NCBI RefSeq assembly: GCF_000026545.1
Contig: NC_011601.1
Length of the DNA stretch: 64,000 nt
DNA from: Escherichia coli O127:H6 str. E2348/69
GTDB taxonomy: Bacteria > Pseudomonadota > Gammaproteobacteria > Enterobacterales > Enterobacteriaceae
Reading direction: 5' to 3' (one strand)
Position 1 is the stretch's first letter; the number at the start of each line of letters is the position of its first letter. Shown piece by piece: positions 12,359 through 54,777 of this stretch. The position numbers and the translations under genes are program-made. The notes below the pieces were generated by a model, which saw only the letters and a list, made by a program, of their open reading frames with translations, did no database searches and was not told the origin of the DNA.

Positions 12359-12547
12359 TCAATGCACGCCCAGACGCCAGGCGAAGTAGATTTCTTCTTT
12401 TAATTCAGCAGAAGAGAGAGTAAGCAGGTCAGCAAATTCAAGTTCTAATTGTTTCAGACGCTTGAGATATTGGGCAGGTGAAAGATTGCTTTGGTCACGG
12501 CGTAAAAATTCAATGGCCAGTTGGGTGGGATCAAGTTGAGTAGACAT
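12359..12547 (-). CDS. ydiH: Small protein YdiH
   Basis: 62-aa product from internal Met of the 72-aa ORF; synteny. Confidence 0.6.
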   Translation of the reverse strand: MSTQLDPTQLAIEFLRRDQSNLSPAQYLKRLKQLELEFADLLTLSSAELKEEIYFAWRLGVH

Positions 12548-12646
12548 AGCATCCTCGCTTTTAGACAAGACCTGCACAGTATACCACCGTTTACTGTGCA
12601 GATAACAACCAAAAGCAATATGCGTCTCACTTTTCTGGTTACAACG

Positions 12647-13057
12647 TCACAAAATGGCGGTCGTCAATCGTGAAGAACAGCACAAACGCCCTTTCTCATC
12701 GAAGATTTCAATCTGCCAGACCTGGTGACGCGAACCGAGATGCAACGGTTTGCATACGCCGCGCACCCGCCCTTCTCGTGCCGAGCGGACGTGGTTAGCA
12801 TTGATTTCCAGACCAACCACTTTTTGCTCACCTTCGGTACATAAATAACCGGCAACGGAACCGATACTTTCGGCCAGTACCACGGATGCACCTCCATGCA
12901 GCAACCCGAAAGGCTGCTTTGTCCGCGAGTCTACTGGCATTGTCGCTTCAAGGGTGTCATCACCAATATGTTCAAAGCGAATATCCAGCAACCCCACCAT
13001 GTTTCCTTCACCCATGGCATTCAGTGCTTCCAGGGTGATTTTTCGTTTCCATATCAT
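12647..13057 (-). CDS. menI: Hotdog-fold thioesterase (1,4-dihydroxy-2-naphthoyl-CoA hydrolase type)
   Basis: 136-aa ORF with LHGGAS motif; synteny (ydiI). Confidence 0.85.
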   Translation of the reverse strand: MIWKRKITLEALNAMGEGNMVGLLDIRFEHIGDDTLEATMPVDSRTKQPFGLLHGGASVVLAESIGSVAGYLCTEGEQKVVGLEINANHVRSAREGRVRGVCKPLHLGSRHQVWQIEIFDEKGRLCCSSRLTTAIL

Positions 13058-16000
13058 TTAATAATCTCCAGTAAAGCCTGCACAGGATGGCGTACCCCTG
13101 TGCCTTCAACCCGTTTTACCTGACTACGGCAGGAATATCCGGTCGCCAGACAGCGGTTACGCGGCAGTCGCTGCATAGCCTGATGCCAGGATAATTCATA
13201 GATCCCGAGCGAATTTTTATGGTTTTTCGCTTCATGTCCGTAAGTCCCTGCCATGCCGCAGCACCCCACGCTGACATTTTCCAGTTTCGCGCCAAAACGG
13301 GCAAATATTGCCGCCCATTGTGCTGGCGCGCCTGGCAAGGCGGTAACTTCGGTACAGTGACCAAAGAAATACCATGATTCACCGCTGACTGTAGCCACTG
13401 GCTGTGACTCAAGTGCGCTTGCCAGCCATTCATTTGCCAGTAAGACGTTAAACTCGCCACGCTCCTCGCCCAGAGCCAGTTTATATTCATCGCGATAACA
13501 AAGTACCAGCGCCGGGTCGACGCCTACCATTGGCATACCCAGCTTCGCCATACGGTTGAGGAAATCCGCCGTCTTTTTCGCCGTCTTCGCAAAACGATTA
13601 AGAAAACCTTTGATATGCTGGGCTTTTCCATTTGGCGAAAATGGCAGTAACACGGGCTGGAAACCTAATTTTTCGACCAGACGGACAAAATCCGCCACCA
13701 CTTGAGCATCGTAATAGCTGGTAAAGGGGTCCTGCACCACCAGCACCGTGCGCGCTTTCTGCTCTGCATTGAGAGCTTCAAGCTGTTCCAGCGTCATGTT
13801 TGCCGAGCGATGCCCCACCATTTGTTGTTGTAGCGAGGGGACCGACAGCAGCGGCAAATCAACCATGCCGATATGTTTTTCCGAGAGTTTGCGCACCAGC
13901 GGCTGGTTAATGAAGAAGTTAAAGGTTTTCGGCGCGCGTGCCATCAGCGGTGCGTAACTCTCAACCGTAGCGACGAGGTGGTCGCGCAGCGGGCGTAAAT
14001 AACGGGTGTGATAGAGTTGCAGGAAACGAGAGCGAAACTCCGGCACATCAATTTTGATGGGGCACTGAGTCGAACAAGCTTTACAGGCCAGACAGCCCGA
14101 CATCGCCTCTTTGACTTCGTGTGAGAAGTCATATTCGCCTTTATTCGCATGCCAACTATTGCGCGTGCGGGCAATTAACGTCCGCAAACTGACGCCGGAT
14201 TCAGGCAGTTCTTGTTCCAGTTTGAGTGGGTCAACGCCGCGATCCGCCAACAAACGCAGCCATTCACGTACCAGCGTTGCGCGCCCTTTCGGTGAATGAA
14301 TCCGGTTCTGGGTGATCTTCATCGACGGGCACATCGGACTACGAGCATCAAAGTTGAAGCATAAACCGTTGCCGTTACACTCCATTGCACCACGCCACTG
14401 CTGGCGTACCGCAATGGGGATCTGTCGATCGAATGTACCGCGCTTCACCGCGTCCACTTTCATCATCGGCGCATCGAGACATTCTGGCGGGCAAATCTTC
14501 CCAGGGTTGAGTCGGTTATGCGGGTCAAATACCGCTTTCACTTTACGCAGTTCTGCAAAAAGTTCCTCACCGAAAAACGCCGGGCTGTATTCGGCGCGAA
14601 AACCTTTGCCGTGTTCGCCCCACAACAAACCACCGTATTTCGCGGTAAGCGCCACTACATCATCAGAGATTTGCTTCATCAAAATCTCTTGTTGCGGATC
14701 GCACATATCCAGTGCAGGACGGACGTGCAAGACACCTGCGTCGACGTGACCGAACATACCGTAGCTTAAGCCGTGGCTGTCGAGCAGCGCGCGAAATTCA
14801 GCAATATAATCCGCCAGGTGTTCCGGCGGTACGCAGGTATCCTCAGCAAACGGAATTGGCTTAGCAGCACCTTTGGCATTGCCAAGCAGACCAACGGCTT
14901 TTTTGCGCATCGCATAGATACGTTCAACACCCGCCAGCTCGCGGCACACCTGCCAGCCGATCACTCCTGCCTGTTGGCTGGCAATCAGCTCATCAAGCCG
15001 CACACAGAGTGCATTAACTCGCTCGTCAATCAGTGCCTCATCATCACCAGCAAATTCCACAATGTTCAGCCCGAGCATCTCTTTATCAGGCACATCGGTA
15101 ATCAACTCGCTGACGGAATGCCAGACAATATCTTCCCGCGCCAGATTCAGCACTTTTGAGTCCACCGTCTCTACCGAAAGCGCCCGCGCCTCAACCATAA
15201 ACGGCGCGTTACGCAGCGCGGAGTCAAAAGAGTCATATTTGACGTTCACCAGACGGCGTACTTTAGGCAAGCGCGTAATATCCAGTCGCGCTTCGGTAAT
15301 AAAGGCCAGCGTCCCTTCTGAACCCGTCAGAATGCGCGTCAGATCGAACTCGGTCATCTCATCGTTAAAGACATGACGCAGATCGTAACCGGTAAGAAAG
15401 CGGTTAAGCTTGGGGAAGTTGTCGATGATTAACTGGCGTTGCTGACGGCAACGTTGATAAACCGTGTTATAAATTCGCCCGATTGTGGTATTGGATTTAC
15501 CCAGCGTTTCCGCCAGTTCGACGGGTAAAGGTTGCGTATCGAGAATATCGCCCCCCAACAACACCGCGCGTACGCCAAGTACGTGATCTGACGTTTTGCC
15601 ATAGACCAGCGATCCCTGACCGGATGCATCGGTATTGATCATCCCGCCGAGCGTTGCCCGGTTGCTGGTCGAAAGTTCTGGCGCAAAAAAGTAGCCAAAG
15701 GGTTTCAGGTACTGATTGAGTTGGTCTTTAATCACCCCGGCCTCAACGCGCACCCAGCCCTCTTCAGGGTTAATTTCGATGATGCGGTTCATATGGCGGG
15801 ACATATCAACAATAATCCCCTGGTTGAGCGCCTGACCGTTAGTGCCGGTGCCGCCGCCGCGGGGGGTAAAGATCAACGATGAATAGCGTTCCTGCGCGGC
15901 AAGACGGGCGATCAGCGCCACATCTGCGGTTGAACGCGGAAATACCACCGCATCGGGGAGAAGTTGATAAATACTGTTGTCAGTCGACATTGTCAGACGA

Positions 16001-16110
16001 TCGGCATAACTTGTCGCCGTATCGCCGGTAAAACCCTGTTGCTCCAGCTCTTGCAAAAAATTAAGCACCAGTTGAACGACGCCGGGTGCCTGGGAAATCT
16101 GTGGAATCAT
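13054..16110 (-). CDS. ydiJ: FAD-linked oxidoreductase with C-terminal Fe-S domain, YdiJ
   Basis: ORF-track ORF is 1042 aa; start at internal Met (MIPQISQAPG...) gives ~1018 aa. Confidence 0.85.
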   Translation of the reverse strand: MIPQISQAPGVVQLVLNFLQELEQQGFTGDTATSYADRLTMSTDNSIYQLLPDAVVFPRSTADVALIARLAAQERYSSLIFTPRGGGTGTNGQALNQGIIVDMSRHMNRIIEINPEEGWVRVEAGVIKDQLNQYLKPFGYFFAPELSTSNRATLGGMINTDASGQGSLVYGKTSDHVLGVRAVLLGGDILDTQPLPVELAETLGKSNTTIGRIYNTVYQRCRQQRQLIIDNFPKLNRFLTGYDLRHVFNDEMTEFDLTRILTGSEGTLAFITEARLDITRLPKVRRLVNVKYDSFDSALRNAPFMVEARALSVETVDSKVLNLAREDIVWHSVSELITDVPDKEMLGLNIVEFAGDDEALIDERVNALCVRLDELIASQQAGVIGWQVCRELAGVERIYAMRKKAVGLLGNAKGAAKPIPFAEDTCVPPEHLADYIAEFRALLDSHGLSYGMFGHVDAGVLHVRPALDMCDPQQEILMKQISDDVVALTAKYGGLLWGEHGKGFRAEYSPAFFGEELFAELRKVKAVFDPHNRLNPGKICPPECLDAPMMKVDAVKRGTFDRQIPIAVRQQWRGAMECNGNGLCFNFDARSPMCPSMKITQNRIHSPKGRATLVREWLRLLADRGVDPLKLEQELPESGVSLRTLIARTRNSWHANKGEYDFSHEVKEAMSGCLACKACSTQCPIKIDVPEFRSRFLQLYHTRYLRPLRDHLVATVESYAPLMARAPKTFNFFINQPLVRKLSEKHIGMVDLPLLSVPSLQQQMVGHRSANMTLEQLEALNAEQKARTVLVVQDPFTSYYDAQVVADFVRLVEKLGFQPVLLPFSPNGKAQHIKGFLNRFAKTAKKTADFLNRMAKLGMPMVGVDPALVLCYRDEYKLALGEERGEFNVLLANEWLASALESQPVATVSGESWYFFGHCTEVTALPGAPAQWAAIFARFGAKLENVSVGCCGMAGTYGHEAKNHKNSLGIYELSWHQAMQRLPRNRCLATGYSCRSQVKRVEGTGVRHPVQALLEIIK

Positions 16111-16194
16111 TATATTGACCCTTTCCTGCGGTCTGTGATGTAGGTCGATACATTGTTCTTTCAGGCTGCTGCAATAGCGCACTGAAAGGTGATG

Positions 16195-16330
16195 TTTGTT
16201 TACTCTATGGATTTCGAGTTGCAGGAAGGCGGCAAGCGAGTGAACTCCAGGAGCTTACAAAAGTAAGTGACTGGGGTGAGCGAACGTAGCCGCAGCATAT
16301 GCAACTTGAAATACAACGAGTAAATCGTTT
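16195..16330. repeat. ERIC / intergenic repeat unit element
   Basis: Contains aagtaagtgactggggtgagcg (ERIC2 primer sequence) and the partner arm gtgaactccaggagcttaca in imperfect-palindrome arrangement, between ydiJ and ydiK. Confidence 0.8.
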
Positions 16331-16498
16331 GCGTGTTGCCTGAGTTGTTGTACCACATTTTTTTCTTACACGCCCATCAGAATTAAGGGCAGAATCGACC
16401 TGTTAAAAACCGCTGAAATTGCTCATCATTATGCAGGTGAGTTTCGCGTGTTCACGTCGCGTCGACGATTTGACGCACAAAAAAGGTGAAAAGTAGTT

Positions 16499-17611
16499 AT
16501 GGTAAATGTTCGTCAGCCCAAGGATGTCGCACAAATTCTGCTTTCGGTGCTGTTTTTAGCCATCATGATTGTGGCATGTCTGTGGATTGTACAACCCTTT
16601 ATTCTCGGCTTTGCATGGGCCGGTACAGTGGTTATCGCCACCTGGCCGGTATTGTTACGTTTGCAAAAGATCATGTTTGGTCGCCGCTCTCTCGCCGTTC
16701 TGGTGATGACGCTGTTATTAGTGATGGTGTTTATCATCCCTATTGCTTTGCTGGTTAACAGTATCGTCGACGGCAGCGGCCCGCTAATTAAAGCCATTTC
16801 CAGTGGTGACATGACATTACCCGATCTGGCGTGGCTTAAAACCATTCCGGTGATTGGCACGAAGCTATATGCAGGCTGGCACAATTTGCTGGATATGGGG
16901 GGGACGGCGATCATGGCGAAAGTCCGTCCTTATATTGGCACCACCACCACCTGGTTCGTTGGGCAGGCGGCGCATATCGGGCGCTTTATGGTGCATTGTG
17001 CGCTGATGCTTCTCTTCAGCGCCCTGCTGTACTGGCGCGGTGAACAGGTGGCACAAGGCATTCGCCATTTTGCAACCCGTCTGGCAGGCGTTCGCGGAGA
17101 TGCCGCCGTGCTGCTGGCGGCACAGGCTATCCGCGCGGTGGCGCTGGGTGTGGTGGTGACGGCGTTAGTACAGGCAGTGCTTGGCGGTATCGGCCTCGCC
17201 GTATCCGGCGTACCTTATGCAACTTTGCTAACGGTGTTAATGATCCTCTCCTGCCTTGTCCAGCTTGGACCGTTGCCGGTACTGATTCCGGCGATTATCT
17301 GGCTCTACTGGACTGGCGATACCACCTGGGGAACGGTATTGTTAGTTTGGAGCGGTGTGGTTGGCACGCTCGATAACGTCATCCGCCCAATGTTAATTCG
17401 CATGGGTGCCGATTTACCGCTGATCCTGATCCTCTCTGGCGTTATTGGTGGTTTGATTGCTTTCGGGATGATCGGTCTGTTTATTGGTCCGGTTCTGTTA
17501 GCCGTTTCCTGGCGTCTGTTTGCCGCGTGGGTGGAAGAAGTCCCACCACCGACGGACCAACCGGAAGAAATTCTCGAAGAACTTGGCGAAATCGAGAAAC
17601 CGAATAAGTAA
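16499..17611 (+). CDS. ydiK: AI-2E family transporter YdiK
   Basis: 370-aa polytopic membrane ORF. Confidence 0.85.
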   Translation: MVNVRQPKDVAQILLSVLFLAIMIVACLWIVQPFILGFAWAGTVVIATWPVLLRLQKIMFGRRSLAVLVMTLLLVMVFIIPIALLVNSIVDGSGPLIKAISSGDMTLPDLAWLKTIPVIGTKLYAGWHNLLDMGGTAIMAKVRPYIGTTTTWFVGQAAHIGRFMVHCALMLLFSALLYWRGEQVAQGIRHFATRLAGVRGDAAVLLAAQAIRAVALGVVVTALVQAVLGGIGLAVSGVPYATLLTVLMILSCLVQLGPLPVLIPAIIWLYWTGDTTWGTVLLVWSGVVGTLDNVIRPMLIRMGADLPLILILSGVIGGLIAFGMIGLFIGPVLLAVSWRLFAAWVEEVPPPTDQPEEILEELGEIEKPNK

Positions 17612-27827: not shown

Positions 27828-28766
27828 ATGAGTCAATTAAACAGCGTCTGGGTCTTTAGCGATAATCCTGAACGTTATGCTGAACTGTTTGGCGGCGCTC
27901 AGCAATGGGGCCAACAGGTGTATGCCATTGTACAAAATACCGACCAGGCGCAGACAGTTATGCCTTATGGGCCAAAATGCATTTATGTTCTTGAGCAAAA
28001 CGACGCGCTGCAACGTACTGAAAATTACGCCGAAAGCATTGCTGCCCTGCTGAAAGATAAACACCCCGCTATGTTGCTATTGGCCGCGACGAAACGTGGT
28101 AAAGCTCTGGCAGCACGGTTAAGTGTGCAACTGAATGCGGCGCTGGTGAACGATGCCACGGCGGTGGATATTGTCGATGGTCACATTTGCGCCGAACACC
28201 GGATGTATGGCGGGTTAGCGTTCGCTCAGGAAAAGATCAACAGCCCGCTGGCGATCATTGCCCTTGCGCCCGGTGTTCAGGAACCGTGCACCCGTGATAT
28301 CTCTCATCAGTGCCCGACAGAAACGGTACCTTATGTTGCCCCGCGTCATGAAATTCTCTGTCGCGAACGCCGTGCGAAAGCGGCAAGCAGCGTGGACCTG
28401 AGCAAAGCAAAACGTGTGGTTGGCGTCGGTCGTGGTCTGGCGGCGCAGGATGACCTGAAAATGGTCCACGAACTGGCGGCAGTGCTGAATGCTGAAGTTG
28501 GCTGTTCACGTCCAATTGCCGAAGGCGAGAACTGGATGGAGCGTGAACGTTATATCGGTGTCTCCGGTGTGTTGCTGAAATCCGATCTCTACCTGACGCT
28601 GGGGATCTCCGGGCAGATCCAGCATATGGTTGGCGGCAACGGCGCAAAAGTGATTGTCGCCATTAATAAAGATAAAAATGCGCCAATCTTCAACTATGCC
28701 GACTACGGTCTGGTGGGCGATATCTACAAAGTCGTCCCTGCCCTGATTAGCCAGTTGAGTCGCTAA
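27828..28766 (+). CDS. ydiR: Electron-transfer flavoprotein alpha-subunit-like YdiR
   Basis: 312-aa ORF. Confidence 0.85.
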   Translation: MSQLNSVWVFSDNPERYAELFGGAQQWGQQVYAIVQNTDQAQTVMPYGPKCIYVLEQNDALQRTENYAESIAALLKDKHPAMLLLAATKRGKALAARLSVQLNAALVNDATAVDIVDGHICAEHRMYGGLAFAQEKINSPLAIIALAPGVQEPCTRDISHQCPTETVPYVAPRHEILCRERRAKAASSVDLSKAKRVVGVGRGLAAQDDLKMVHELAAVLNAEVGCSRPIAEGENWMERERYIGVSGVLLKSDLYLTLGISGQIQHMVGGNGAKVIVAINKDKNAPIFNYADYGLVGDIYKVVPALISQLSR

Positions 28767-28820
28767 TTCCCTTTCAACCACATCTCCCGCTGTAAACGCA
28801 GCGGGAAGGGAGCATAACGC

Positions 28821-30110
28821 ATGTCGGATGACAAATTTGATGCCATTGTGGTCGGTGCGGGCGTTGCCGGTAGCGTTGCCGCACTGGTCATGGCGCGAGC
28901 CGGGCTGGATGTCCTGGTGATAGAACGCGGCGACAGTGCCGGATGTAAAAACATGACCGGCGGGCGTCTTTATGCCCACACACTCGAAGCAATTATTCCA
29001 GGCTTTGCAGCATCAGCGCCGATAGAACGCAAGGTCACACGCGAGAAAATCTCCTTCTTAACCGAAGAAAGCGCCGTTACCCTCGATTTTCACCGCGAGC
29101 AACCAGATGTTCCGCAACACGCGTCTTATACCGTATTGCGTAATCGTCTGGACCCGTGGTTGATGGAACAAGCCGAGCAGGCGGGCGCGCAGTTTATCCC
29201 GGGCGTACGCGTCGATGCACTGGTTCGTGAAGGAAACAAGGTCACTGGCGTCCAGGCCGGGGATGATATTCTCGAAGCGAATGTGGTGATTCTGGCTGAT
29301 GGCGTTAACTCGATGCTTGGCCGCTCGCTGGGAATGGTTTCCGCTTCCGATCCGCATCATTACGCTGTTGGTGTTAAAGAGGTTATAGGCCTGACACCAG
29401 AACAGATCAACGATCGCTTTAATGTTACGGGCGAGGAAGGTGCCGCCTGGCTGTTTGCCGGTTCCCCTTCTGACGGCCTGATGGGCGGCGGATTCCTCTA
29501 TACCAACAAGGATTCCGTATCGTTGGGGCTGGTTTGTGGATTGGGTGATATCGCCCATGCGCAAAAAAGCGTGCCGCAAATGCTGGAAGATTTTAAACAA
29601 CACCCCGCCATTCGCCCGCTGATTAGCGGCGGCAAACTGCTTGAATATTCCGCGCATATGGTGCCGGAGGGCGGTCTGGCAATGGTGCCGCAGCTGGTTA
29701 ACGATGGCGTGATGATCGTTGGTGACGCCGCAGGCTTCTGCCTGAATTTGGGTTTTACAGTTCGCGGCATGGATTTAGCCATTGCATCAGCTCAGGCTGC
29801 CGCCACAACGGTGATCGCCGCCAAAGAACGCGCGGATTTCTCCGCCAGCAGTCTGGCGCAATACAAACGTGAGCTGGAACAAAGTTGTGTTATGCGCGAT
29901 ATGCAGCATTTCCGCAAGATCCCGGCGCTGATGGAAAACCCGCGCCTGTTTAGCCAATACCCACGAATGGTCGCCGACATCATGAACGATATGTTCACCA
30001 TTGACGGCAAACCAAACCAGCCGGTACGCAAAATGATCATGGGACACGCGAAGAAAATTGGGCTGATCAACTTGCTGAAAGATGGCATTAAGGGAGCAAC
30101 CGCGCTATGA
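28821..30110 (+). CDS. ydiS: FAD-dependent oxidoreductase (FixC/ETF-QO-like) YdiS
   Basis: 429-aa ORF with N-terminal GAGVAG dinucleotide-binding motif. Confidence 0.85.
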   Translation: MSDDKFDAIVVGAGVAGSVAALVMARAGLDVLVIERGDSAGCKNMTGGRLYAHTLEAIIPGFAASAPIERKVTREKISFLTEESAVTLDFHREQPDVPQHASYTVLRNRLDPWLMEQAEQAGAQFIPGVRVDALVREGNKVTGVQAGDDILEANVVILADGVNSMLGRSLGMVSASDPHHYAVGVKEVIGLTPEQINDRFNVTGEEGAAWLFAGSPSDGLMGGGFLYTNKDSVSLGLVCGLGDIAHAQKSVPQMLEDFKQHPAIRPLISGGKLLEYSAHMVPEGGLAMVPQLVNDGVMIVGDAAGFCLNLGFTVRGMDLAIASAQAAATTVIAAKERADFSASSLAQYKRELEQSCVMRDMQHFRKIPALMENPRLFSQYPRMVADIMNDMFTIDGKPNQPVRKMIMGHAKKIGLINLLKDGIKGATAL

Positions 30111-30400
30111 GCCAGAACGCTACGGTTAACGTCGACATCAAATTAGGCGTCAATAAATTCCATGTTGATGAGGGCCACCCGCATATCATTTTGGCGGCAA
30201 ATCCCGATATCAATGAATTCCGTAAATTAATGAAAGCTTGCCCTGCCGGACTTTATAAGCAGGATGACGCAGGAAACATTCATTTCGATTCCGCCGGTTG
30301 TCTGGAGTGCGGCACCTGTCGGGTGCTGTGCGGCAACACTATTCTCGAACAGTGGCAATATCCCGCAGGCACCTTCGGTATTGAATTTCGCTACGGCTAA
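30107..30400 (+). CDS. ydiT: Ferredoxin-like protein (FixX-like) YdiT
   Basis: 97-aa ORF with CxxCxxC motif, overlaps ydiS stop. Confidence 0.85.
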   Translation: MSQNATVNVDIKLGVNKFHVDEGHPHIILAANPDINEFRKLMKACPAGLYKQDDAGNIHFDSAGCLECGTCRVLCGNTILEQWQYPAGTFGIEFRYG

Positions 30401-45981: not shown

Positions 45982-46185
45982 ATGGCAATTAAGCATTTTC
46001 CTGTCGTTCGTTTCACCTCCAGAGGACGTGAATACGAAGTTGACGAACGCCTGATTACCACAATCGACAAACACCGTTCAGAAAAGGATGCACATCACAT
46101 CTATCTCACTGACGGCACTTACTTCTGCGCCACCAACGTGGTGCAGGTGAATCTTATCAGACAGGTACAGGAGTCACGCAGATGA
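45982..46185 (+). CDS. Hypothetical early protein (67 aa)
   Basis: AGGAGG RBS 7 nt upstream of ATG. Confidence 0.45.
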   Translation: MAIKHFPVVRFTSRGREYEVDERLITTIDKHRSEKDAHHIYLTDGTYFCATNVVQVNLIRQVQESRR

Positions 46186-46427
46186 CCATTCTGGACTACA
46201 TCGCTGCCAATCCGGGTTGTAGCGGTGGAGAAATCGCCGCAGCACTGAATACACCAACCACAACCATTAATGCGGAGCTACGCCGTCTCTGGCGCAGCGG
46301 TTCAGTCATAAGAAAAGAGCGCAAAACAGGCGGTCGCTTTTCTTATCAGGTAAACCCGATGCCGTTTGGGTGTAGCAACCCACTAACCCAGATGTTCAAC
46401 CAGCTACTGAGGGAAATCAGAGCATGA
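46182..46427 (+). CDS. Small winged-helix-like DNA-binding protein (81 aa)
   Basis: Pattern GEIAAALNTPTTTINAELRRLWRSGSV resembles MarR/wHTH recognition helix; inference only. Confidence 0.4.
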   Translation: MTILDYIAANPGCSGGEIAAALNTPTTTINAELRRLWRSGSVIRKERKTGGRFSYQVNPMPFGCSNPLTQMFNQLLREIRA

Positions 46428-46568
46428 GCACCTCCAACTGCCGGAAACCACGTCGGGCTTCAGCAGCTCATCCGGCAGCAAAACAAACTCCATTAATTCC
46501 TGTTCCGGGCCTTTCCTGCACCTTGTGGCGGGAGGCCTTCGCACATCTGTAACAAGAGGATTGCCGCA

Positions 46569-46934
46569 ATGATTCTCGCCAACGACTTTCTTGAATACCT
46601 GCTCAACACAGAGCGTGATCTTGCCGTTCGCGTGCGTGAACGTTATGACATGTACCTGAAATCCCTGCCTGTACCGCAGCTCGCTGACGGAAAGATTGTT
46701 ATTGATGGTCGCTACATGATTGACAGCCACGAGGGAAATTACAGGCTTTACCGCATTGAAGGTGGCACCCCGTCCGTTATTGGCATTTACCAGCGCCCAT
46801 CCTCTGCAATCGTCGATGTGATTGCCGACAGCATCCGCATCACACATCGCCATGCCGACACAGAAGACACCGTGCTGGAAATTCAGCGGCTGGCTACAGT
46901 CTGCCGCGACACCCTGAATGGCATGACGAAGTAA
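46569..46934 (+). CDS. Hypothetical early protein (121 aa)
   Basis: Complete ORF directly upstream of gene A. Confidence 0.4.
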   Translation: MILANDFLEYLLNTERDLAVRVRERYDMYLKSLPVPQLADGKIVIDGRYMIDSHEGNYRLYRIEGGTPSVIGIYQRPSSAIVDVIADSIRITHRHADTEDTVLEIQRLATVCRDTLNGMTK

Positions 46935-46940
46935 ATCACT

Positions 46941-49763
46941 ATGACGGCAGAGTACATCAGGGACTGGCAACAACCGCGCCACGCAGTGGGGCGTGAAGGA
47001 ACGGGGATCCCCGCTCCTGAATCCGCGCTTTCCTCCTGGCTGGATGCCTACCGGGCAGAGAACGAGCACCGCCAGGAAATGGCTGATGCGGCGTTCTCCG
47101 CCACGCCGCTGGGCAACCTGATTAATAAAAGCCTGGACGCACAGGAAAAACAGGACAAAACCATCACACTGGCAGGAGACGCCAGAAAACAGGCACGCGG
47201 CGCGGTGGATGAAGCCATGGCCTCGCTGCGCCTGCTGCCGTCCTATCTGCGCGATCCGCTTATTCGCCACCTCTCCTTCCTGCGCAAAAAACAGGAAGCC
47301 GATCGTCAGAAAGGAAAAAACGCCAGGCAGGCAGAACGCTATGCGCGTGGGACCCTGCGCAAAATATTCGAACGTCTGGAGCGCACCGATCACCGCTGGC
47401 TGACACCGGGTTATCGCTCCCTTGCCGGACGCGAACGCCTGGACGATTTGCTTTACCTGCCGCAGCTCAACAAACACCAGATAAAGACGCTGGCAACCAT
47501 GACGGCGGCGATGTTCAGCAGCACCTTCGAAAAACTCTGCGATGGCTTTGGCGCGACCGATGGCGAGCTGACCATGGATGTAACCCTGAAGGCGTATCAG
47601 ATGCTGGCCCGCATGGCGTTACACCTGCACGCCATGCCTCCACATTATGACGCACTGACAACAGACAAAGACCGGAGGAACGAACCGGACACGGAGCTGC
47701 TGCCGGGCGCAATCCTTCGCCTGACCTGTGCGGAATGGTGGAAACGCAAACTGTGGCTGTTACGTTGCGAGTGGAGAGAAGAACAACTCCGCGCCGCCTG
47801 TCTGGTTTCCAGAAAAACATCGCCCTATCTGAGCCAGGACGCGTTAAGCGAGTTTCGCGCACAGCGCGAGAAAACACGCGATTTCCTGAAAAGTTTCATG
47901 CTGGAAAACGAAGACGGGTTCACGATTGATCTCGAGACAGTGTATTACGCGGGAGTAAGTAACCCGGTTCACCGTAAGGCAGAAATGATGGCCACCATGA
48001 AGGGACTGGAACTTCTGGCCGAAGCCCGTGGCGACAGAGCGGTGTTTCTGACTGTCACCTGCCCGTCAAAATACCACGCAACAACGGAGAACGGTCATCC
48101 GAACCCCAAATGGAACGGGGCCACCATGCGCGACTCCAGCGATTACCTGGTTAACACGTTTTTTGCGGCGGTCCGCAAAAAACTGAACCGCGACGGCCTG
48201 CGCTGGTATGGCATCCGCACGGTGGAGCCTCACCATGACGGCACCGTGCACTGGCATATGATGGTCTTTGCTCATCCGGAAGAAATCGACAGCATCGTGA
48301 CCATCACCCGCGATATTGCCATTCAGGAAGACCGCCACGAGCTGGGCAATGATATTACTCCGCGCTTTAAGGTGGAGTACGTCGACGGCACCAAAGGCAC
48401 GCCAACCAGCTACATCGCCACCTACATCGGAAAAAACCTGGACAGCCGCGCCGTGGATGGCATCGACCCGAAAACGGGCAAACCACGCGTTGACCACGAA
48501 ACCGGAAAATCAATGGCCGAGAGCGTGGAGCGCGCCATCGGTTGGGCACGCCTTCACCGGGTCCGCCAGTTCCAGTTCTTTGGCATCCCCTCCCGTCAGG
48601 TGTGGCGTGAACTCCGCCGCCTTGCCAGCCAGATGGCACGCAACCCGGAAGGCCCGCAACGGCTGAAGGATGACGCAATGGATGCGGTACTCGCTGCCGC
48701 TGATGCCGGATGTTTTGCCACCTACATAGAGAAACAGGGCGGTGTACTTGTTCCACGCAAAGACTACCTGATTCGCACCGCCTACGACCTCGCCGATGAG
48801 CTGAACGATTACGGCGAACAGAGTGTACAGATTTACGGGATCTGGTCACCACTCATCGGGGAATCCTCCCGTGTGTGCACGCACCCGGATAACTGGAAGC
48901 TGGTAAGACGTAAACCGGAACAGGAAGGCAGCGCCCACGAAAATGGTTTTGACCTTCAGGGCGGCCCTGCCGCCCCTTGGACTCGTGGCAATAACTGTCC
49001 CCGTGTACAGGAAACGGACAACAACGGGACAGAACAGCCGGAAGAACGGCCAGCACCGTGGCCGCAGCTCCCTGACGGCGTTGAAGTGAACGAATGGGTG
49101 CGCTCACTGAAACGGCACGAACGCCGGGCGCTGATGCGTTCGCTTCGTGACAAACAGGCAAAAAACAGCAGTGATGAAATGCAGAGCTGGACACAGAGCC
49201 GCAAACAGCAGCGGCCTTTGCCTGATAACCACGAATTACTCGCTAAAGAATGGCGGGAGTCTGCTGAATCTCTCGGCCTGCATATCGGTGAACAGCAGAT
49301 GCAGCACCTGTTACGGGGCGGCAGCCTGTACGTTGACGGCAGCATCATTGCACCGCAGGGATATGAAATTGTACGTAAACCGGATACCCGCCCGGACAGC
49401 CGAATCACGCAGCTCTGGCAACGCCTGAGCCGTAACCACGGCGTAAGCAGCACGGAGATCCGCCATAACCCGGTCGCCAGCTATCTGGAACAACTAGGGG
49501 CATCAGACCCTGAAGCCGCCGCACGCCTGGCATCCACACTTCAGCAAGACCAGAACACCATGAAAACACCCGTTACCGTACTTTCTGACATGCTGCGCGC
49601 CATCCGCGACGCAGAGCACGAACAGAGAATCAGTGAAACAACTGAACGCGCCCGCCGCAAAGCAGACCTGCTGCGGGGTGGCCTGACCAGTGGAAACAAA
49701 AAACAGACAAAAACGGGATTCACAAATCCCGTAAATGAGCAAAAAACGCGCCGCGATATATGA
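46941..49763 (+). CDS. A: Rolling-circle replication initiator (P2 gpA-like HUH endonuclease), 940 aa
   Basis: HUH motif (GTVHWHMMVF) and Y-x3-Y active-site pair (YIATYIGKN) as in P2 A. Confidence 0.85.
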   Translation: MTAEYIRDWQQPRHAVGREGTGIPAPESALSSWLDAYRAENEHRQEMADAAFSATPLGNLINKSLDAQEKQDKTITLAGDARKQARGAVDEAMASLRLLPSYLRDPLIRHLSFLRKKQEADRQKGKNARQAERYARGTLRKIFERLERTDHRWLTPGYRSLAGRERLDDLLYLPQLNKHQIKTLATMTAAMFSSTFEKLCDGFGATDGELTMDVTLKAYQMLARMALHLHAMPPHYDALTTDKDRRNEPDTELLPGAILRLTCAEWWKRKLWLLRCEWREEQLRAACLVSRKTSPYLSQDALSEFRAQREKTRDFLKSFMLENEDGFTIDLETVYYAGVSNPVHRKAEMMATMKGLELLAEARGDRAVFLTVTCPSKYHATTENGHPNPKWNGATMRDSSDYLVNTFFAAVRKKLNRDGLRWYGIRTVEPHHDGTVHWHMMVFAHPEEIDSIVTITRDIAIQEDRHELGNDITPRFKVEYVDGTKGTPTSYIATYIGKNLDSRAVDGIDPKTGKPRVDHETGKSMAESVERAIGWARLHRVRQFQFFGIPSRQVWRELRRLASQMARNPEGPQRLKDDAMDAVLAAADAGCFATYIEKQGGVLVPRKDYLIRTAYDLADELNDYGEQSVQIYGIWSPLIGESSRVCTHPDNWKLVRRKPEQEGSAHENGFDLQGGPAAPWTRGNNCPRVQETDNNGTEQPEERPAPWPQLPDGVEVNEWVRSLKRHERRALMRSLRDKQAKNSSDEMQSWTQSRKQQRPLPDNHELLAKEWRESAESLGLHIGEQQMQHLLRGGSLYVDGSIIAPQGYEIVRKPDTRPDSRITQLWQRLSRNHGVSSTEIRHNPVASYLEQLGASDPEAAARLASTLQQDQNTMKTPVTVLSDMLRAIRDAEHEQRISETTERARRKADLLRGGLTSGNKKQTKTGFTNPVNEQKTRRDI

Positions 49764-49808
49764 AGCGCGCACAAAACAGGCGAAAACGGGATTTAAAAAT
49801 CCTGTAAC
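49710..49808. repeat. Two ~27-bp near-identical interrupted palindromes (aaaacgggattNANAAATCCNGTAA), candidate parC-like centromere or ori element
   Basis: Copy 1 at ~49710-49736 (inside the 3' end of A), copy 2 at ~49782-49808 (32 bp upstream of parM start). Confidence 0.45.
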
Positions 49809-49839
49809 CGATTAATTAATCAACATAAGGAAAAGCGAC

Positions 49840-50799
49840 ATGAAAATTTGTATCGACGACGGCTCCACCAACATCAAGCTGGCATGGACTGAGAACGGCG
49901 AACACCGCAACGCCATCAGCCCGAACAGCTTCAAGTCGGAATGGTCTGCGCCGTTCGGTGGCACGCAGCCCGCGAACTACATGCTTGATGGCGTGCGCTA
50001 TGGTTTTGATCCGGTCAGCGATCGCTTTGTCCAGACGACCGACACGCAATACCAGTACAGCGATGTGAATGTCATTGCCATTCATCATGCGCTGGTCAAA
50101 TCAGGCATCACGCCACAGGAGGTGGATGTGGTTGTCACCCTGCCACTGAGCGAGTATTTCGACACAAACGCACAGCCGGACATGGCCAACATCAACCGCA
50201 AAAAAGCGAACGTTATGCGCCCGGTGGAGTACCAAAACGGCGAGGCATTCACTATCCGTAACGTGCGGGTTATGCCTGAATCCATTCCGGCTGGCTTTAA
50301 AGCACTGGCTGACATGAGTCCGTTTGAATCCCTGCTGATTGTGGATTTGGGCGGAACCACGCTGGATGTGGCAAAGGTTCAGGGGCAACTGGCAGGTATC
50401 AGCCAGGTGTTTTGCGATCCACACGTAGGCGTTTCTCTGATGGCCGATGCCGTGCTGTCGGTGATGGCCACCAACGGTATGCGCACCAGTCACCACATCG
50501 CCAATACCATTATCGAACATCGCCACGATGAAGCCTGGCTGCGCCAGCACATCCACAATGACGCGCATTACGCCAGCCTGATGGCAGTTATTCGTGAAAA
50601 GGAGGAAACACTGAAACAACGCGTGATCCGCGCGCTGGCGGTTTTTTCGGGTTACGGGCGGGTGATGGTTGTCGGTGGAGGGGCGGAGATTGTGGCACCC
50701 GCTATCCGCGAAGCCTGCGGAGTTAATGCGACTTTCATCGCGGACGGGGTGCCACAGTTTGCTCTGGTTAATGGGCTGTACGCAATGGACAAGGAGTAA
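49840..50799 (+). CDS. parM: ParM/StbA-like actin-type partition ATPase
   Basis: IDDGSTNIKL...ISPNSFK...YSDVNVIAIHHAL...RKKANV...VMPESIPAG...DLGGTTLD...VVGGGAE closely parallels plasmid R1 ParM. Confidence 0.85.
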   Translation: MKICIDDGSTNIKLAWTENGEHRNAISPNSFKSEWSAPFGGTQPANYMLDGVRYGFDPVSDRFVQTTDTQYQYSDVNVIAIHHALVKSGITPQEVDVVVTLPLSEYFDTNAQPDMANINRKKANVMRPVEYQNGEAFTIRNVRVMPESIPAGFKALADMSPFESLLIVDLGGTTLDVAKVQGQLAGISQVFCDPHVGVSLMADAVLSVMATNGMRTSHHIANTIIEHRHDEAWLRQHIHNDAHYASLMAVIREKEETLKQRVIRALAVFSGYGRVMVVGGGAEIVAPAIREACGVNATFIADGVPQFALVNGLYAMDKE

Positions 50800-50803
50800 A
50801 CCA

Positions 50804-51115
50804 ATGACGACTCCAACCAGACGGATAAGTTTCTATCTGAAGCCCACCGCCGTCAAGAACGAAGGAGAAGCATGCGCCTGGCTGGACAGCCTTACACCAG
50901 AAGCCCGCAAAAGCGGCCAACGCGTGGCTTTTCTGGCCGGGCTGGCACTTCTGAAAATGAATCCGGCAGAGGCTTACCGACTGGCTGCATGGGCTGATGA
51001 TGAGGTGTTATCAGTGACACAAACCAAGACAGAACGCCCCGCGTCACAGCCAGTATCAACCGCACAGATAACCAGTCAGATGGCCGGAAATATCCGGGCG
51101 TTATTTCCTGAATAA
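50804..51115 (+). CDS. parR: ParR-like centromere-binding adaptor
   Basis: RRISFYLKP...WLDSLTPEARKSGQRVAFLAGLAL...RALFPE parallels R1 ParR (RTIAFKLNP...TLDSIP..RS..RAALTAGLAL...SLFPKE); internal-Met start. Confidence 0.7.
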   Translation: MTTPTRRISFYLKPTAVKNEGEACAWLDSLTPEARKSGQRVAFLAGLALLKMNPAEAYRLAAWADDEVLSVTQTKTERPASQPVSTAQITSQMAGNIRALFPE

Positions 51116-51493
51116 CATCAGGGCGTATTCGCCCTGCCACCAATCCCATAACATAAAGAACGGGGTGCAAATCACTATACACCCCGTTCCAATACAAACC
51201 ATCAGAAGATCTACACATCTTTCTCAAATGGCCAAGTAATCGAGCTGGTTCAGGAATAAGCATGCTGCCAACACAAGTGAAGGAGATAAAACTGTAGAAC
51301 TGATCAATCGTTGGAAACAAGTATTGACAGTATGTTCGAGTAACCCAACTGGATAGATTTTATGCTGATTATCCATACAGTAAAAAAGTAAGGATACTCT
51401 TTGAATTACGCCAGCAAGAGTGGTAACATTAGTCAATGATTTTCATTAATGTAGTTACCAGCTTACACAAGCTGATGTTTTATTGGGGGTTTT

Positions 51494-52576
51494 ATGGTAA
51501 ACGTGAGGGAGGATGAACTTTTCAAACTCATCGAGCAAGGCATCAAAGGCAACGCAAATGCATTTACACTCCTATGCAGAAAGATGATTAACAACATCCG
51601 TAAAAATGATGAGGCTTTAGCTTCTAAGCTGGCTTCGTTAGTTGCTGAGGGAACAGTATTACGTGGGGCATCTAGTAAGGCTCCTATGCCTGTGGATGGA
51701 GACTCCAGACGAAACCTTTTGCAGGAAACATCTGTCAACGCAATTGTTGAAGAACCTGTATGGAATACGGATATCTCAAAGAAGCTGGAGTCAATTGTTA
51801 ACGAAAGAGAGAATGCGGTTTCTTTGTTCAAAGCTGGTCTTGAACCTGTGAAGACGGTTTTACTTTCTGGCCCGCCAGGCGTAGGCAAAACAATGTCCGC
51901 ACATTGGCTTGCTGCAAAGTTAAATTTACCTCTTTTAACATTGGATCTCTCATCTGTAATGAGTTCTCTTTTGGGAAAAACAGGTAATAATATTAAATCC
52001 GTTATGGATTATGCCAAAGAGAAACCATGTGTCCTTTTGCTTGATGAATTTGATGCTGTTGCAAAAAGACGTGATGATGACAGGGACGTTGGAGAATTAA
52101 AACGTTTAGTTACTGTACTCCTACAGACCATAGATGAGTGGCCAGCGACCTCGCTTCTTGTTGCTGCGACTAATCACCCTGATATCTTAGATCCGGCTGT
52201 TTGGCGTCGATTTGAGCACATCCTTAAATTTAATATGCCATCAGTAGAACTGATAGATAGATATTTAGTCAATCATAATATTGAACCTGAACTATCTAAA
52301 AAACTTGCACCATTATTAGATGGCATGTCCTTTGCCATCATTAACCGTATTTTGAATTTCTCCAAAAAGAATGAGGTACTTAGAAATATTCCATTTGAAA
52401 GCTCATTAATAGAAGCCGTAATTACGGAGAGGGTTTCATTGGATGAGTTTAGCGATAATGATCTCAATATAATTAAATATCATTTTGACGGTTTTTCAAA
52501 TAGGAAGATAGCTGAATTAGTTGGTGTTTCACATCCAACAATCGCGAATAAATTACAAAAGTGGGGGATTAAATGA
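51494..52576 (+). CDS. Classic-clade AAA+ ATPase with C-terminal LuxR/GerE-like HTH (360 aa); candidate defence component
   Basis: Walker A GPPGVGKT (aa 126-133), Walker B LLLDEFD (aa 181-187), sensor-1 ATN, second-region-of-homology-like DILDPAVWRRFEH; C-terminal NRKIAELVGVSHPTIANKLQKWGI HTH. Confidence 0.85.
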   Translation: MVNVREDELFKLIEQGIKGNANAFTLLCRKMINNIRKNDEALASKLASLVAEGTVLRGASSKAPMPVDGDSRRNLLQETSVNAIVEEPVWNTDISKKLESIVNERENAVSLFKAGLEPVKTVLLSGPPGVGKTMSAHWLAAKLNLPLLTLDLSSVMSSLLGKTGNNIKSVMDYAKEKPCVLLLDEFDAVAKRRDDDRDVGELKRLVTVLLQTIDEWPATSLLVAATNHPDILDPAVWRRFEHILKFNMPSVELIDRYLVNHNIEPELSKKLAPLLDGMSFAIINRILNFSKKNEVLRNIPFESSLIEAVITERVSLDEFSDNDLNIIKYHFDGFSNRKIAELVGVSHPTIANKLQKWGIK

Positions 52577-54777
52577 TGGAAAGGAACTTACTTTTAGGTA
52601 ACGGTCATGTTCTGACAAAAAAGGAACCTTTGCCTAAAGGAAGGGATGGTAAGCGCTATCCCTATACTCTTGAAGAAGTAAGGGAGCATTTAAACCCAGA
52701 GATTGATACTTTACTCTCACGCTTTCGCAGTTTGGATGATGCGGCTAAGCCAAGGGGGGAGAGTGTATTCAATTTAACTTTACACCCAGCGTTTTTGGGT
52801 AAAAGCTACTTTCCGGAAGGATTGCTTAGAGCGACAGGTTTACGGGATGTCGGCAGCCGTCAGGTAATCATTCGCCCACGGAAAGCGGCACGTCAGTGCG
52901 ATCAGAATAAGGACTTAGTAACGGCGCAACTGTTTGTTAGCGGTGATGATGATGCCGTTATAAGATTTAAGGAAATTTTAAATTCCCCTACAGCTCCGAA
53001 GGGCGTACAAAAGGATTTGATCGAAATTGAAAGTGTTAGCTTTTTTGAAGGAAAAGAGAGAGCACGCAATTTTGAGCATGCGAAAAGTGATTTGATAAAA
53101 TTTGAAGTGGTTCTTCATGCTGGGGTTGAAGACGATGATATCGTTAAAGCCTATATTAGCTATGCGGCACAATATGATGTCTCTGTTGATTACAAAAGTA
53201 GAATCCAAGTTGGTGGGCTGACTTTCATCGTTGCACACGCGCGACCTGAAGATATGAAAAAAACACTCGATTTTTCATTAATCCGCGTTGTGCGGCCGAT
53301 GCCGTCTCTCAGGTGTACTCAGCCGAACATTGTCAGAAAGTTATCTAATATAGTTACACCGGAGCTCCCTAATTCTAAAGCTGTTCTTGAATCCGAACGT
53401 ATTGCCATTTTTGATGGTGGCTTGGGGACAGCTGACTTGAGTAATTGGGTTACGGAATACGTGTATCCAGACACCAAAGAAACAAGCGGATTATTATTGC
53501 AGCACGGTAATGAAGTGACATCCACTTTCTTATTCGGACGTGTCGAGGAAAATGCACCTTCTTTTAAAAGACCGTTTATGAATGTAGATCATTATAGAGT
53601 TCTTTCACCGACATCAGGTGACAATGGCAATTGGGATTTATTTGATGTCCTTAAGAAAATACAGTCCGTTCTTGATAGTGGTGACTATAAGTTCGCTAAT
53701 CTAAGTATTGGTCCTCATCTTCCAATTGGTGATGATGAGGTTCATGTATGGACTGCTGTTTTAGACCAAATCTGTGCTAAGCATGGGATATTACTTACTG
53801 TTGCTGTTGGGAATGATGGCAATGAGGACGGTGATGCAGCGAGAATACAACCTCCTTCCGATATGGTAAACGCGCTAGCGATTGGTGCTGCTGATCGTAG
53901 CGGTGAAAAATGGGGGCGGGCACCATATAGCTGTATTGGGCCAGGCAGAAGCCCCGGATTCGTTAAACCTGATGGTGTTATTTTTGGTGGAAGCGACGAC
54001 GAGCCTTTTTACACTTACAACCCTCTGCTTGGTTCTATAGTTGGAGTTCAAGGAACCAGTTATGCCTCTCCATTAGCATTGAGAACGGCCGCTGGAGTTG
54101 CGGCTCTATCAGGAACTCCATTGAACACCATTGCATTGAAAGCGTTGCTTGTTCATCATGCTGAAACATCAAGAAAATATTCGCGTGAACATATCGGTTG
54201 GGGACGGTTTAGTGAGGATCCTAACGTTTTAATCGATTGTCCAAATGATACTGCTACAGTAATTTACTATGGTTCATTAGCAAAAAATAAATATTTAAGG
54301 GCACCGATCCCATTCCCTGATGTTCCCTTTGACGAAGCATTTGAGCTTACCGCTACTTTATGCATTCAAACCCCAGTAGATCCTGAACATTCAGTAAACT
54401 ATACAAGGGCCGGTATGCAGGTAACTTTCCGCCCAAGATTCGGCCTTGACGATACCGATACAGATGATTTCTTTGGTCAAAAAAGCCAGTATAAGACTGA
54501 AAGGGAGTGTAGGAGTGAAGGTCATAAGTGGGAAACTTGTTTGCACAGAAGCAAAAAGTTCAGTGCTGATACATTATTAAGCGATCCAGTTTTTGATATA
54601 CGGTATCATGCCCGAGATTCTTCGCGCCATGTTAAGGGAGTTTCAGCCCCTGATATGCAATATGCGATGGTAATAAGCGTAAGGGTAAAAGACTTTGATT
54701 TATATAATGTTATTCGCCAGCGATATACAATTCTGAATCCTATTCAACTGCGCACACAAATTTCTCTCGACACGTAA
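52573..54777 (+). CDS. Subtilisin-like (S8) serine peptidase, 734 aa, no signal peptide; candidate defence effector
   Basis: Catalytic order D-H-N-S: IAIFDGG (D281), HGNEVTS (H311), VAVGNDG (N414), GTSYASPLA (S496); ~270-aa N-terminal and ~230-aa C-terminal regions unassigned; start overlaps ATPase stop (ATGA). Confidence 0.85.
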   Translation: MMERNLLLGNGHVLTKKEPLPKGRDGKRYPYTLEEVREHLNPEIDTLLSRFRSLDDAAKPRGESVFNLTLHPAFLGKSYFPEGLLRATGLRDVGSRQVIIRPRKAARQCDQNKDLVTAQLFVSGDDDAVIRFKEILNSPTAPKGVQKDLIEIESVSFFEGKERARNFEHAKSDLIKFEVVLHAGVEDDDIVKAYISYAAQYDVSVDYKSRIQVGGLTFIVAHARPEDMKKTLDFSLIRVVRPMPSLRCTQPNIVRKLSNIVTPELPNSKAVLESERIAIFDGGLGTADLSNWVTEYVYPDTKETSGLLLQHGNEVTSTFLFGRVEENAPSFKRPFMNVDHYRVLSPTSGDNGNWDLFDVLKKIQSVLDSGDYKFANLSIGPHLPIGDDEVHVWTAVLDQICAKHGILLTVAVGNDGNEDGDAARIQPPSDMVNALAIGAADRSGEKWGRAPYSCIGPGRSPGFVKPDGVIFGGSDDEPFYTYNPLLGSIVGVQGTSYASPLALRTAAGVAALSGTPLNTIALKALLVHHAETSRKYSREHIGWGRFSEDPNVLIDCPNDTATVIYYGSLAKNKYLRAPIPFPDVPFDEAFELTATLCIQTPVDPEHSVNYTRAGMQVTFRPRFGLDDTDTDDFFGQKSQYKTERECRSEGHKWETCLHRSKKFSADTLLSDPVFDIRYHARDSSRHVKGVSAPDMQYAMVISVRVKDFDLYNVIRQRYTILNPIQLRTQISLDT

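Follow-up and report, generated by a model that had tools for sequence, protein, structure and literature searches.

The in-gene replication origin as probable junction between the nicking core and an exchangeable tail module in the gene A protein of a P88-like prophage

In this article, I describe gene A of a P2-family prophage lying in a 64-kb stretch of Escherichia coli O127:H6 str. E2348/69 DNA (the window), and the account that I consider probable as a whole is that the origin carried inside the gene for this P88-like rolling-circle initiator forms the junction to an exchangeable four-part tail module. By homology with P2 gpA, the core (residues about 180-690) would nick the in-gene origin at about 48979/48980, become covalently attached to the DNA and prime rolling-circle synthesis, while residues 688-940 and the cargo behind gene A would be exchanged jointly from phage to phage, with the origin block as the junction. 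The module would consist of a disordered linker, a small domain at residues 764-814, a helical appendage of ~100 aa and ~40 unconstrained codons. The features of the gene on which this account draws are as follows.

46941 to 49763, plus strand: gene A, HUH nicking endonuclease and replication initiator (ORF list, 436-bit Pfam Phage_GPA match, identity to phiSM and P88)
47475 to 48449, plus strand: Phage_GPA domain, residues 179-503, which holds the catalytic motifs (Pfam)
48249 to 48257, plus strand: HUH motif, H437-W-H439 (invariant columns in alignment A1)
48411 to 48425, plus strand: active-site tyrosines Y491 and Y495, Y-x3-Y (counterparts of P2 Y450 and Y454; invariant in A1)
48959 to 49002, plus strand: putative origin, made up of a GC hairpin at 48959-48975 and an invariant block at 48968-49002 (sequence comparison)
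49002 to 49229, plus strand: post-origin linker and helix, residues 688-763 (AF2, dN/dS about 0.2)
49230 to 49382, plus strand: small conserved C-terminal domain, residues 764-814 (alignment A3, AF2 pLDDT 80-90)
49383 to 49640, plus strand: lineage-specific helical extension, residues 815-900 (dN/dS, AF2, family-limited occurrence)
49641 to 49763, plus strand: unconstrained terminal codons 901-940 and the stop codon (dN/dS 1.3-1.4, junction mapping, frame change)

The reading frame opens with ATG and encodes 940 aa before its stop codon, and the product matches Phage_GPA (PF05840) with 436.1 bits against a cut-off of 31.4, as well as phrog_91, 'nicking at origin of replication', with E=6e-277. 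The Pfam match is confined to residues 179-503 and leaves the C-terminal part beyond the nuclease core, as the initial annotation had suspected, and the HUH motif (invariant in 16 aligned sequences, P2 included) and the tyrosines are located at 46-53% of the protein length, near the middle as that annotation had also stated. P2 gpA (NP_046795.1, 761 aa, encoded at 28034..30319) belongs like the window protein to the Phage_GPA family, has the HUH motif, both tyrosines and the small domain near the C-terminus in common with it, and aligns with 30% identity across window residues 77-800, its C-terminus matched to residues 745-800; from this alignment, nicking by the HUH motif and two tyrosines, covalent attachment and cis-action are presumed to carry over from P2. 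The length difference, initially put at ~180 aa, is 179: 38 residues at the N-terminus, 22 inside the protein and 119 at the C-terminus. Measured between landmarks, the window protein is longer by 38 aa from the N-terminus to the HUH motif, by 3 from there to the tyrosines, by 19 from the tyrosines to the NNC motif and by 119 from the NNC motif to the end (257 aa, versus 138 in P2); P2 gpA stops 21 aa past the small domain, whereas the window protein runs 140 aa further. Because the P2 C-terminus has its homologue in residues 745-800, only about 801-940 are truly extra, and an extension of ~200 residues, as first proposed, overstates the size: the added C-terminal length is 119 aa by landmarks and the selected part is ~100 residues (801-900). 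The accompanying description of the last ~200 residues as Arg/Gln-rich holds for Gln, which is ~2.2-fold enriched (8.5% in residues 741-940 versus 3.8% in residues 1-687), but not for Arg, which is barely so (10.0% versus 9.2%).

The length itself had by implication been taken as unusual, and it is ordinary because the protein is the normal long form of the replication initiator of P88-like prophages of the P2 family, carried by roughly one in four complete E. coli genomes (tail DNA in 1356 of 5426, 25%). The 940-aa protein also occurs in P88, phiSM and other Xuanwuvirus phages, the norm for the subgroup is 910-946 aa (P88, phiSM, 520873, P884B11 and others), the kind of result that the initial annotation had named as its own refutation, and protein clusters with 707 to 16,881 member sequences have lengths of 940-946 aa. 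P88 gp16 (YP_009113059.1, genus Xuanwuvirus) is likewise 940 aa and 96% identical over its full length, while the replication endonuclease of Citrobacter phage Shae_phiSM (WOZ57147.1, Xuanwuvirus), again 940 aa, is 98% identical. At the nucleotide level, the window and P88 are 96.5% identical across 46454-51165 and 95.9% identical in the tail, and the order of a 121-aa ORF, A, parM and parR is common to P88, phiSM and the window; the cargo 3' of parR is IetAS in the window prophage and consists of other genes in P88 and phiSM. The long A protein is not worth chasing as an anomaly. The literature searches turned up no work on the gpA tail of Xuanwuvirus phages.

Sequence comparison points to gene A as the holder of its own putative cognate origin. 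The 33-nt block (48968-49002) shows no difference among 7 divergent loci and aligns with both the annotated P2 nick site (29892) and the 186 ori, codons 677-687 show zero synonymous changes, and the nick is predicted at about 48979/48980, in codon W680. Both P2 and 186 preserve the hairpin structure, and in L011, a 186-like phage locus, its stem is weaker. P2 has, like the window, an in-gene origin with a related nick sequence and a 5' hairpin; the 694-aa A protein of phage 186 (NP_052289.1), a rolling-circle replicase as well, shares the in-gene origin, the CAATAACTGT core and the 5' hairpin, but has only about 83 residues after the origin.

It is at this block that the DNA changes company. 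Identity switches from >=95% to <80% between adjacent 300-nt segments were seen at the origin block in 145 pairs, counted as pairs among 93 loci and not as independent events, and the same comparison of adjacent 300-nt segments in 93 loci found none at -1500, -1200, -900, -300 or +300. The locus L011 illustrates what such a switch means: its core is saturated in dS (3-4) against the window, whereas in tail, parM and parR it hardly differs from the window (dS 0.03-0.17), so that a 186-like phage bears the window-type long tail together with parMR. The DNA 3' of the origin block, encoding residues 688-940, is a separate mosaic module that is swapped along with the post-A cargo, and P2-family gene A is a two-module gene divided at its internal origin. 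The gpA-to-portal hotspot therefore starts inside the replication gene and not after it. A gpA-gpQ defence hotspot in P2-like phages was described by Rousset et al. (2022; PMC9122126), who delimited it by whole genes and speculated that recombination initiates at cos; the window agrees with it in carrying variable cargo (parMR and IetAS) between gene A and the portal gene, and differs in that variability sets in, on the left, within gene A itself, first at the origin block and a second time at codon ~900-912. I would suggest, tentatively and as something that is rather doubtful at present, that the in-gene origin is itself the recombination device that bounds the P2-family cargo (defence) hotspot on its left side: gpA would initiate at the origin of one phage and terminate at that of another, and such termination would join the core of the one to the tail-plus-cargo of the other exactly at the nick. 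Alternatively, recombination could be restricted to the 33-nt patch of identity. By either route, the tail of the initiator would be hitch-hiking hotspot DNA that has to function with foreign cores, and the in-gene junction offers a concrete site for studying the shuffling of defence cargo.

Considering the module part by part, the linker is acidic, Pro-rich and predicted to be disordered (AF2 pLDDT <50 at residues 677-704), with a helix predicted at residues 716-751, and is followed by the small domain at 764-814, modelled by AF2 as two helices and a three-stranded sheet, which is common to all family members (P2 and the 764-aa forms included) and aligns with P2 residues about 700-740. Across 24 loci, dN/dS is 0.22 for residues 688-744, 0.17 for 745-800, 0.14 for 801-873 and 0.06 for 874-900, and then rises to 1.38 for 901-920 and 1.28 for 921-940. 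These values bear on the idea, which I find unlikely, that the tail is mainly a co-translational tether or timer whose length matters more than its sequence; since the origin precedes the tail, the finished nuclease would be held to its own template via ribosome, mRNA and RNA polymerase for as long as the tail is being translated, and this would yield the cis-action known for P2 A. The in-gene origin in P2, 186 and the window is consistent with such a tether, as are tails that differ greatly in sequence and length but are seldom absent, that start with disordered linkers and that divergent cores can exchange; however, dN/dS of 0.06-0.22 and a universally conserved small domain show that sequence matters, and 186 copes with about 83 residues past the nick.

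The same data speak to whether the entire extension (801-940) might be non-functional read-through that arose when a cargo insertion removed the ancestral stop codon, a proposal that is quite unlikely. It draws on the last 40 codons, with their dN/dS of about 1.3, their unconserved frame and the disorder that AF2 predicts for them, and on the tail being the DNA in which the window and Hafnia agree least; but residues 801-900 show dN/dS of 0.06-0.14 in the 24 loci, residues 801-873 are at 0.18 in the Hafnia comparison, and the stretch at about 808-870 is still 43% identical in a distant gpA of 841 aa. Residues 801-900 are under purifying selection, and for them read-through is largely refuted by these selection data. 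A DNA-level element at 874-920, considered on the basis of low dS in the single Hafnia comparison, was dropped as well, since the 24 loci show strong selection until residue 900 and neutrality only beyond it, so the pairwise signal had mixed two segments.

What remains is a ~100-aa selected appendage on an initiator that about one complete E. coli genome in four encodes. Its helices are predicted by AF2 at low to moderate confidence (pLDDT 55-80), the underlying alignment being shallow, with 19 sequences, and the full-length model has a pTM of 0.35, too low to judge whether the tail docks on the core. Searches of Pfam with the whole protein and with the tail alone gave zero matches for residues 801-940 up to E<=10, NCBIfam and a PDB sequence search gave zero matches for the tail, and Foldseek of the AF2 tail model against the PDB returned a best match of only E=0.19; the initial annotation had offered an extra domain or a lineage-specific extension, and it is the latter that stands, with no known domain recognised in these searches. 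Residues 874-914, read by eye as a possible ribbon-helix-helix, had no profile support and are a single long helix in AF2, and this reading was abandoned. Because the appendage works with cores that are only about 55% identical, we infer that it is a non-catalytic adaptor or self-association region placed on the universal C-terminal domain, possibly contacting a host replication factor such as the Rep helicase.

Could the appendage instead stem from a fusion of A with a gene that once stood separately behind it? An ORF of 140-151 aa that overlaps the stop codon of A in short-tail relatives speaks for such a fusion, but neither those ORFs nor P2 orf91 are significantly similar to the extension (BLASTP best E=0.011 with 8 sequences, phmmer E>=0.1), and no free-standing homologue was found among 1.84 billion representative proteins, gpA fragments aside. 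In that HMMER scan, residues 801-940 gave 15 matches at E<=0.001, mostly gpA fragments or tails, and the weak matches P0145, P0152 and P0153 are long multi-stretch proteins taken as spurious. Given this absence of similarity, a fusion of A with the next ORF of the short-tail relatives was rejected, and an origin from a separate gene is highly improbable.

The end of the gene tells a different story from the selected appendage, and it is inseparable from the parM/parR cassette downstream, whose features are these.

49697 to 49734, no strand assigned: repeat unit 1, 38 nt, containing the palindrome at 49713-49732, inside gene A (sequence conservation)
49770 to 49807, no strand assigned: repeat unit 2, containing the palindrome at 49786-49805, just upstream of parM (84% identical to unit 1)
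49840 to 50799, plus strand: parM, actin-like segregation ATPase (Pfam StbA_N 275 bits, ParM_N 231 bits)
50804 to 51115, plus strand: parR/stbB-like adaptor gene, directly downstream of parM (Pfam Plasmid_stab_B 84 bits)

Residues 901-940, predicted by AF2 to be disordered, are read-through over the left junction of this inserted cassette. In relatives of 910 and 916 aa that lack parMR, homology to the window stops at about 49642-49675; in L011, a 1-nt deletion shifts the frame in the terminal codons while the DNA is still conserved; and in Hafnia, the loop of palindrome 1 holds the stop codon of gene A. In the 940-aa form, the final ~40 codons amount to by-product translation of the parMR regulatory region, and they counsel caution, as terminal 'extensions' of this kind are not safely read as domains. 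The junction also decides the fate of the view that the extension couples replication to ParMR partition and arrived with the parMRC cassette. The association is striking at first sight: the 14 long-tail records in the phage collection coincide with the 14 in which this ParM is encoded, Hafnia and the 186-like phage also pair the long tail with parMR, and among 117 loci ParM is found only behind tails of 244, 252 or 262 residues. However, the 910- and 916-aa relatives keep the extension to about residue 900-910 without downstream parMR, bearing other cargo, or IetAS directly, in its place; and with the junction of the cassette at about 49642-49675, no more than the final 30-40 codons fall on the parMR side. 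The coupling domain was rejected on the 910- and 916-aa forms and is very unlikely.

A perfect 8+8 palindrome, ACGGGATT-CACA-AATCCCGT, lies at 49713-49732 within codons 925-931, so the initial annotation was right that the 3' end of gene A carries the first palindromic repeat; the second copy, at 49786-49805, is in the 76-bp gap 5' of parM, and these two are the only matches in the 64-kb window, with 0.2 expected by chance. The starts of the two repeat units are 73 bp apart, and the units are conserved in three lineages (Hafnia, the 186-like locus and P88). From their position and conservation, the two 38-nt units are probably ParR operators or parC half-sites. In common with the type II ParMRC locus of plasmid R1/NR1 (stbA/stbB), the cassette has an actin-like ParM ATPase, a Plasmid_stab_B-type ParR and repeats immediately 5' of parM, but the repeats are arranged differently. 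The parC of R1 consists of ten 11-bp direct iterons, whereas the window has two 38-nt units with 20-bp palindromes, the first of them inside the gene A coding sequence, and its host element is an integrating phage, unlike the R1/NR1 plasmid. A plasmid search with the DNA 5' of parM, aimed at copies away from gpA, returned prophage copies only. On the minus strand, both palindromes also look like weak intrinsic terminators.

Gene A of the prophage is uninterrupted over 940 codons, and its product (gpA) is 179 aa longer than the 761-aa product of P2 gene A, so the size excess over P2 reported in the initial annotation was borne out.

46941-49763, + strand: gene A ORF, 940 codons

Phage_GPA (Pfam) was matched by residues 179-503 (436 bits), the HUH motif is H437-W-H439, and tyrosines Y491/Y495 match P2 Y450/Y454 in the alignment. 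The same annotation had described the C-terminal ~200 residues as Arg/Gln-rich, which holds for Gln (8.5% in the last 200 residues vs 3.8% in the core) but only marginally for Arg (10.0% vs 9.2%). The gene also stands out by its strand composition, with a strongly positive + strand AT skew (0.15 at 46-48 kb and 0.25 at 48-50 kb, the coding strand being rich in A over T) that is ~0 outside the gene A region (46001-50000). A 121-aa ORF (46569-46934, + strand), for which Pfam gives no hit, stops 7 nt ahead of the start codon of gene A and keeps this position in relatives that include P88, phiSM and Hafnia; according to the phage 186 record, translation of an upstream ORF is necessary for translation of A.

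The length itself is real but ordinary. The Citrobacter phage Shae_phiSM replication endonuclease shares 98% identity with the window protein, and P88 gp16 (Escherichia phage; Xuanwuvirus, Peduoviridae) shares 96%; both have 940 aa and lie in the same neighborhood as in the window (121-aa ORF, A, parM, parR). E. coli members of the 935-946-aa protein clusters number in the hundreds to thousands, and the tail DNA (49010-49763, scored as present at ≥80% coverage) occurs in 1356/5426 complete E. coli genomes; therefore A proteins of 900+ aa, implied at first to be unusual, are the norm in this subgroup, an already catalogued form that characterizes the genus and that E. coli carries very commonly. 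The chromosome beside the prophage is that of E. coli, with a fadK 100% identical to the E2348/69 copy.

Divided at landmarks, the 179-aa excess falls into 38 aa between the N-terminus and the HUH motif, 3 aa between that motif and the tyrosines, 19 aa between the tyrosines and the NNC motif, and 119 aa beyond the latter. Since BLASTP aligns residues 77-800 with P2 residues 42-740, residues 745-800 are not extra; they belong to a small domain shared by all family members examined, the 764-aa Salmonella forms among them. AlphaFold2 (AF2) models this domain (residues 764-814) as two helices and a three-stranded sheet with pLDDT 80-90.

By homology, the window gpA is a two-tyrosine HUH initiator with a putative origin inside its own gene. 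The nick site is annotated at gene A codon ~620 in the P2 record and the ori at codon ~611 of 694 in the 186 record, and the following block aligns to the P2 nick region, which predicts a nick at about 48979/48980.

48968-49002, + strand: origin block, GCCGCCCCTTGGACTCGTGGCAATAACTGTCCC

In seven loci GCCGCCCCTTGGACTCGTGGCAATAACTGTCCC is identical, including synonymous positions, with flanks only 45-90% identical. Origin structures were compared between window 48959-49040 and the loci L001, L138 and L011, the last a 186-like phage with CI, CII, Fil and Dam genes. A hairpin directly 5' of the nick block is the layout typical of HUH origins, and a GC hairpin occupies this position with its structure kept in the window, P2 and 186, stems and loops differing, while L011 has only a weak 3-bp stem there. 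A second inverted repeat (48995-49006 / 49021-49032) lies 3' of the block, with arms that seem to vary together in some relatives; the first codons of the tail may thus encode an accessory origin structure.

Past the origin block, family members differ completely in sequence and length, with tails of 25-262 residues counted from P679 (all 136 loci with the origin pattern) and main classes of 121-131 and 262 residues. The gpA core of L011 is ~55% identical to that of the window with dS saturated, and from the origin block on there is near-identity with the window across the tail, parM and parR (dS 0.03-0.17). Among 93 non-identical loci sharing the origin block (from IMG/VR and elsewhere), pairs whose identity switches abruptly from ≥95% in one 300-nt segment to <80% in the next were counted per boundary; they are sharply localized, even though the pairs are non-independent events.

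Identity switches by boundary position relative to the origin block
-1500, -1200, -900, -300 and +300: 0 pairs
-600: 34 pairs
origin block: 145 pairs, in both directions
+600: 62 pairs
+900 (gene-end/cargo junction): 470 pairs

The gpA-gpQ interval has been described as a defense hotspot, with speculation that recombination is initiated at cos (Rousset et al., PMC9122126), whereas here the left edge of variability falls within gene A. The first part of the modest added value lies in describing gene A as a mosaic of core and tail with the origin as the joint. Within the gpA-to-portal cargo interval, the two genes after parR (51494-54777, + strand) match the IetAS anti-phage models (IetA, AAA ATPase, E=4e-89; IetS, subtilase, E=7e-41), and in the related locus L017 the IetA/IetS pair directly follows gene A without parMR.

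Comparative data show that this modular tail is selected to about residue 900 and neutral further on.

Mean pairwise dN/dS (24 long-tail loci; residues 901-940 on 18 loci of the 262-residue class)
residues 688-744: 0.22
residues 745-800: 0.17
residues 801-873: 0.14
residues 874-900: 0.06
residues 901-920: 1.38
residues 921-940: 1.28

Comparison with the Hafnia protein (62% identical) gives 0.18-0.33 for residues 688-873, in agreement with these values. Pure read-through was considered as the source of the extension; the ratios indicate selection at the protein level on residues 801-900 but not on the last 40. Residues ~808-870 are kept in a distant 841-aa gpA (43% identity) and in the 870-879-aa class, and AF2 places helices at 820-833, 844-870 and 877-913 (pLDDT 55-80), with residues 917-940 disordered. 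Searches for a known domain, a solved structure or a fold match recognized no extra domain of the kind first suspected here. The 100-aa appendage may be a non-catalytic adaptor or self-association element joined to the universal small C-terminal domain, and its working with cores only ~55% identical argues for a partner invariant between phages, possibly a host factor (for example the Rep helicase, required by P2) or gpA itself; a co-translational tether was also considered for the tail. Inside the tail, an alternative-frame ORF (49147-49428, + strand) corresponds to the frame into which a database protein of 963 aa (P0062) passes at what looks like a frameshift; P0062 probably represents a pseudogene or a copy with a frameshift, not an alternative product.

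The end of the gene leads into a partition cassette, with gene A followed by a 76-bp gap, parM (StbA_N + ParM_N, Pfam) and a ParR/StbB-family gene. Fusion with a downstream gene was among the four rival accounts considered for the extension. A ParMR-coupling domain was another: the 14 long-tail genomes among phage records are exactly the 14 with this ParM, and across 117 loci ParM occurs only after tails of 244, 252 or 262 residues (16/16 cases), while relatives of 910 and 916 aa retain the extension to about residue 900-910 with other cargo and no parMR downstream. The DNA of these relatives departs from the window at ~49642-49675, which leaves only the last 30-40 codons on the cassette side of the junction. 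There, the first palindromic repeat lies at the 3' end of gene A, as initially annotated.

49713-49732: palindrome 1, ACGGGATTCACAAATCCCGT, codons 925-931 of gene A
49786-49805: palindrome 2, second copy of ACGGGATTCACAAATCCCGT

These are the only matches to ACGGGATTCACAAATCCCGT in the window, each within a 38-nt direct repeat, the repeat starts being 73 bp apart. Hafnia has its stop codon in the palindrome 1 loop, L011 has lost 1 nt from an A-run, which alters the terminal peptide with the DNA, palindrome included, still conserved, and the two 38-nt units immediately upstream of parM are conserved in three lineages; all three observations are consistent with terminal codons on the cassette side. 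The units are best read as putative parC elements or ParR operators, and they also resemble weak terminators when read on the minus strand. The second part of the added value is to have shown that the 40 terminal residues arise as a by-product of the junction with parMR.

The window holds an integrating P2-family phage with a plasmid-type partition system (49840-51115), and the nearest phage ParM homologue outside Xuanwuvirus is that of the P1-like plasmid-prophage D6 (NC_050154, 48% identity). An entire P88-like phage genome with integrase, A, parM, parR and structural genes is entered in a complete E. coli assembly as the circular 'plasmid' pZ1323PEC0009-2 (NZ_CP148288.1, 34,461 bp; locus L014); parMR might support an episomal state, or, just as plausibly, the assembly caught an excised replicative form.
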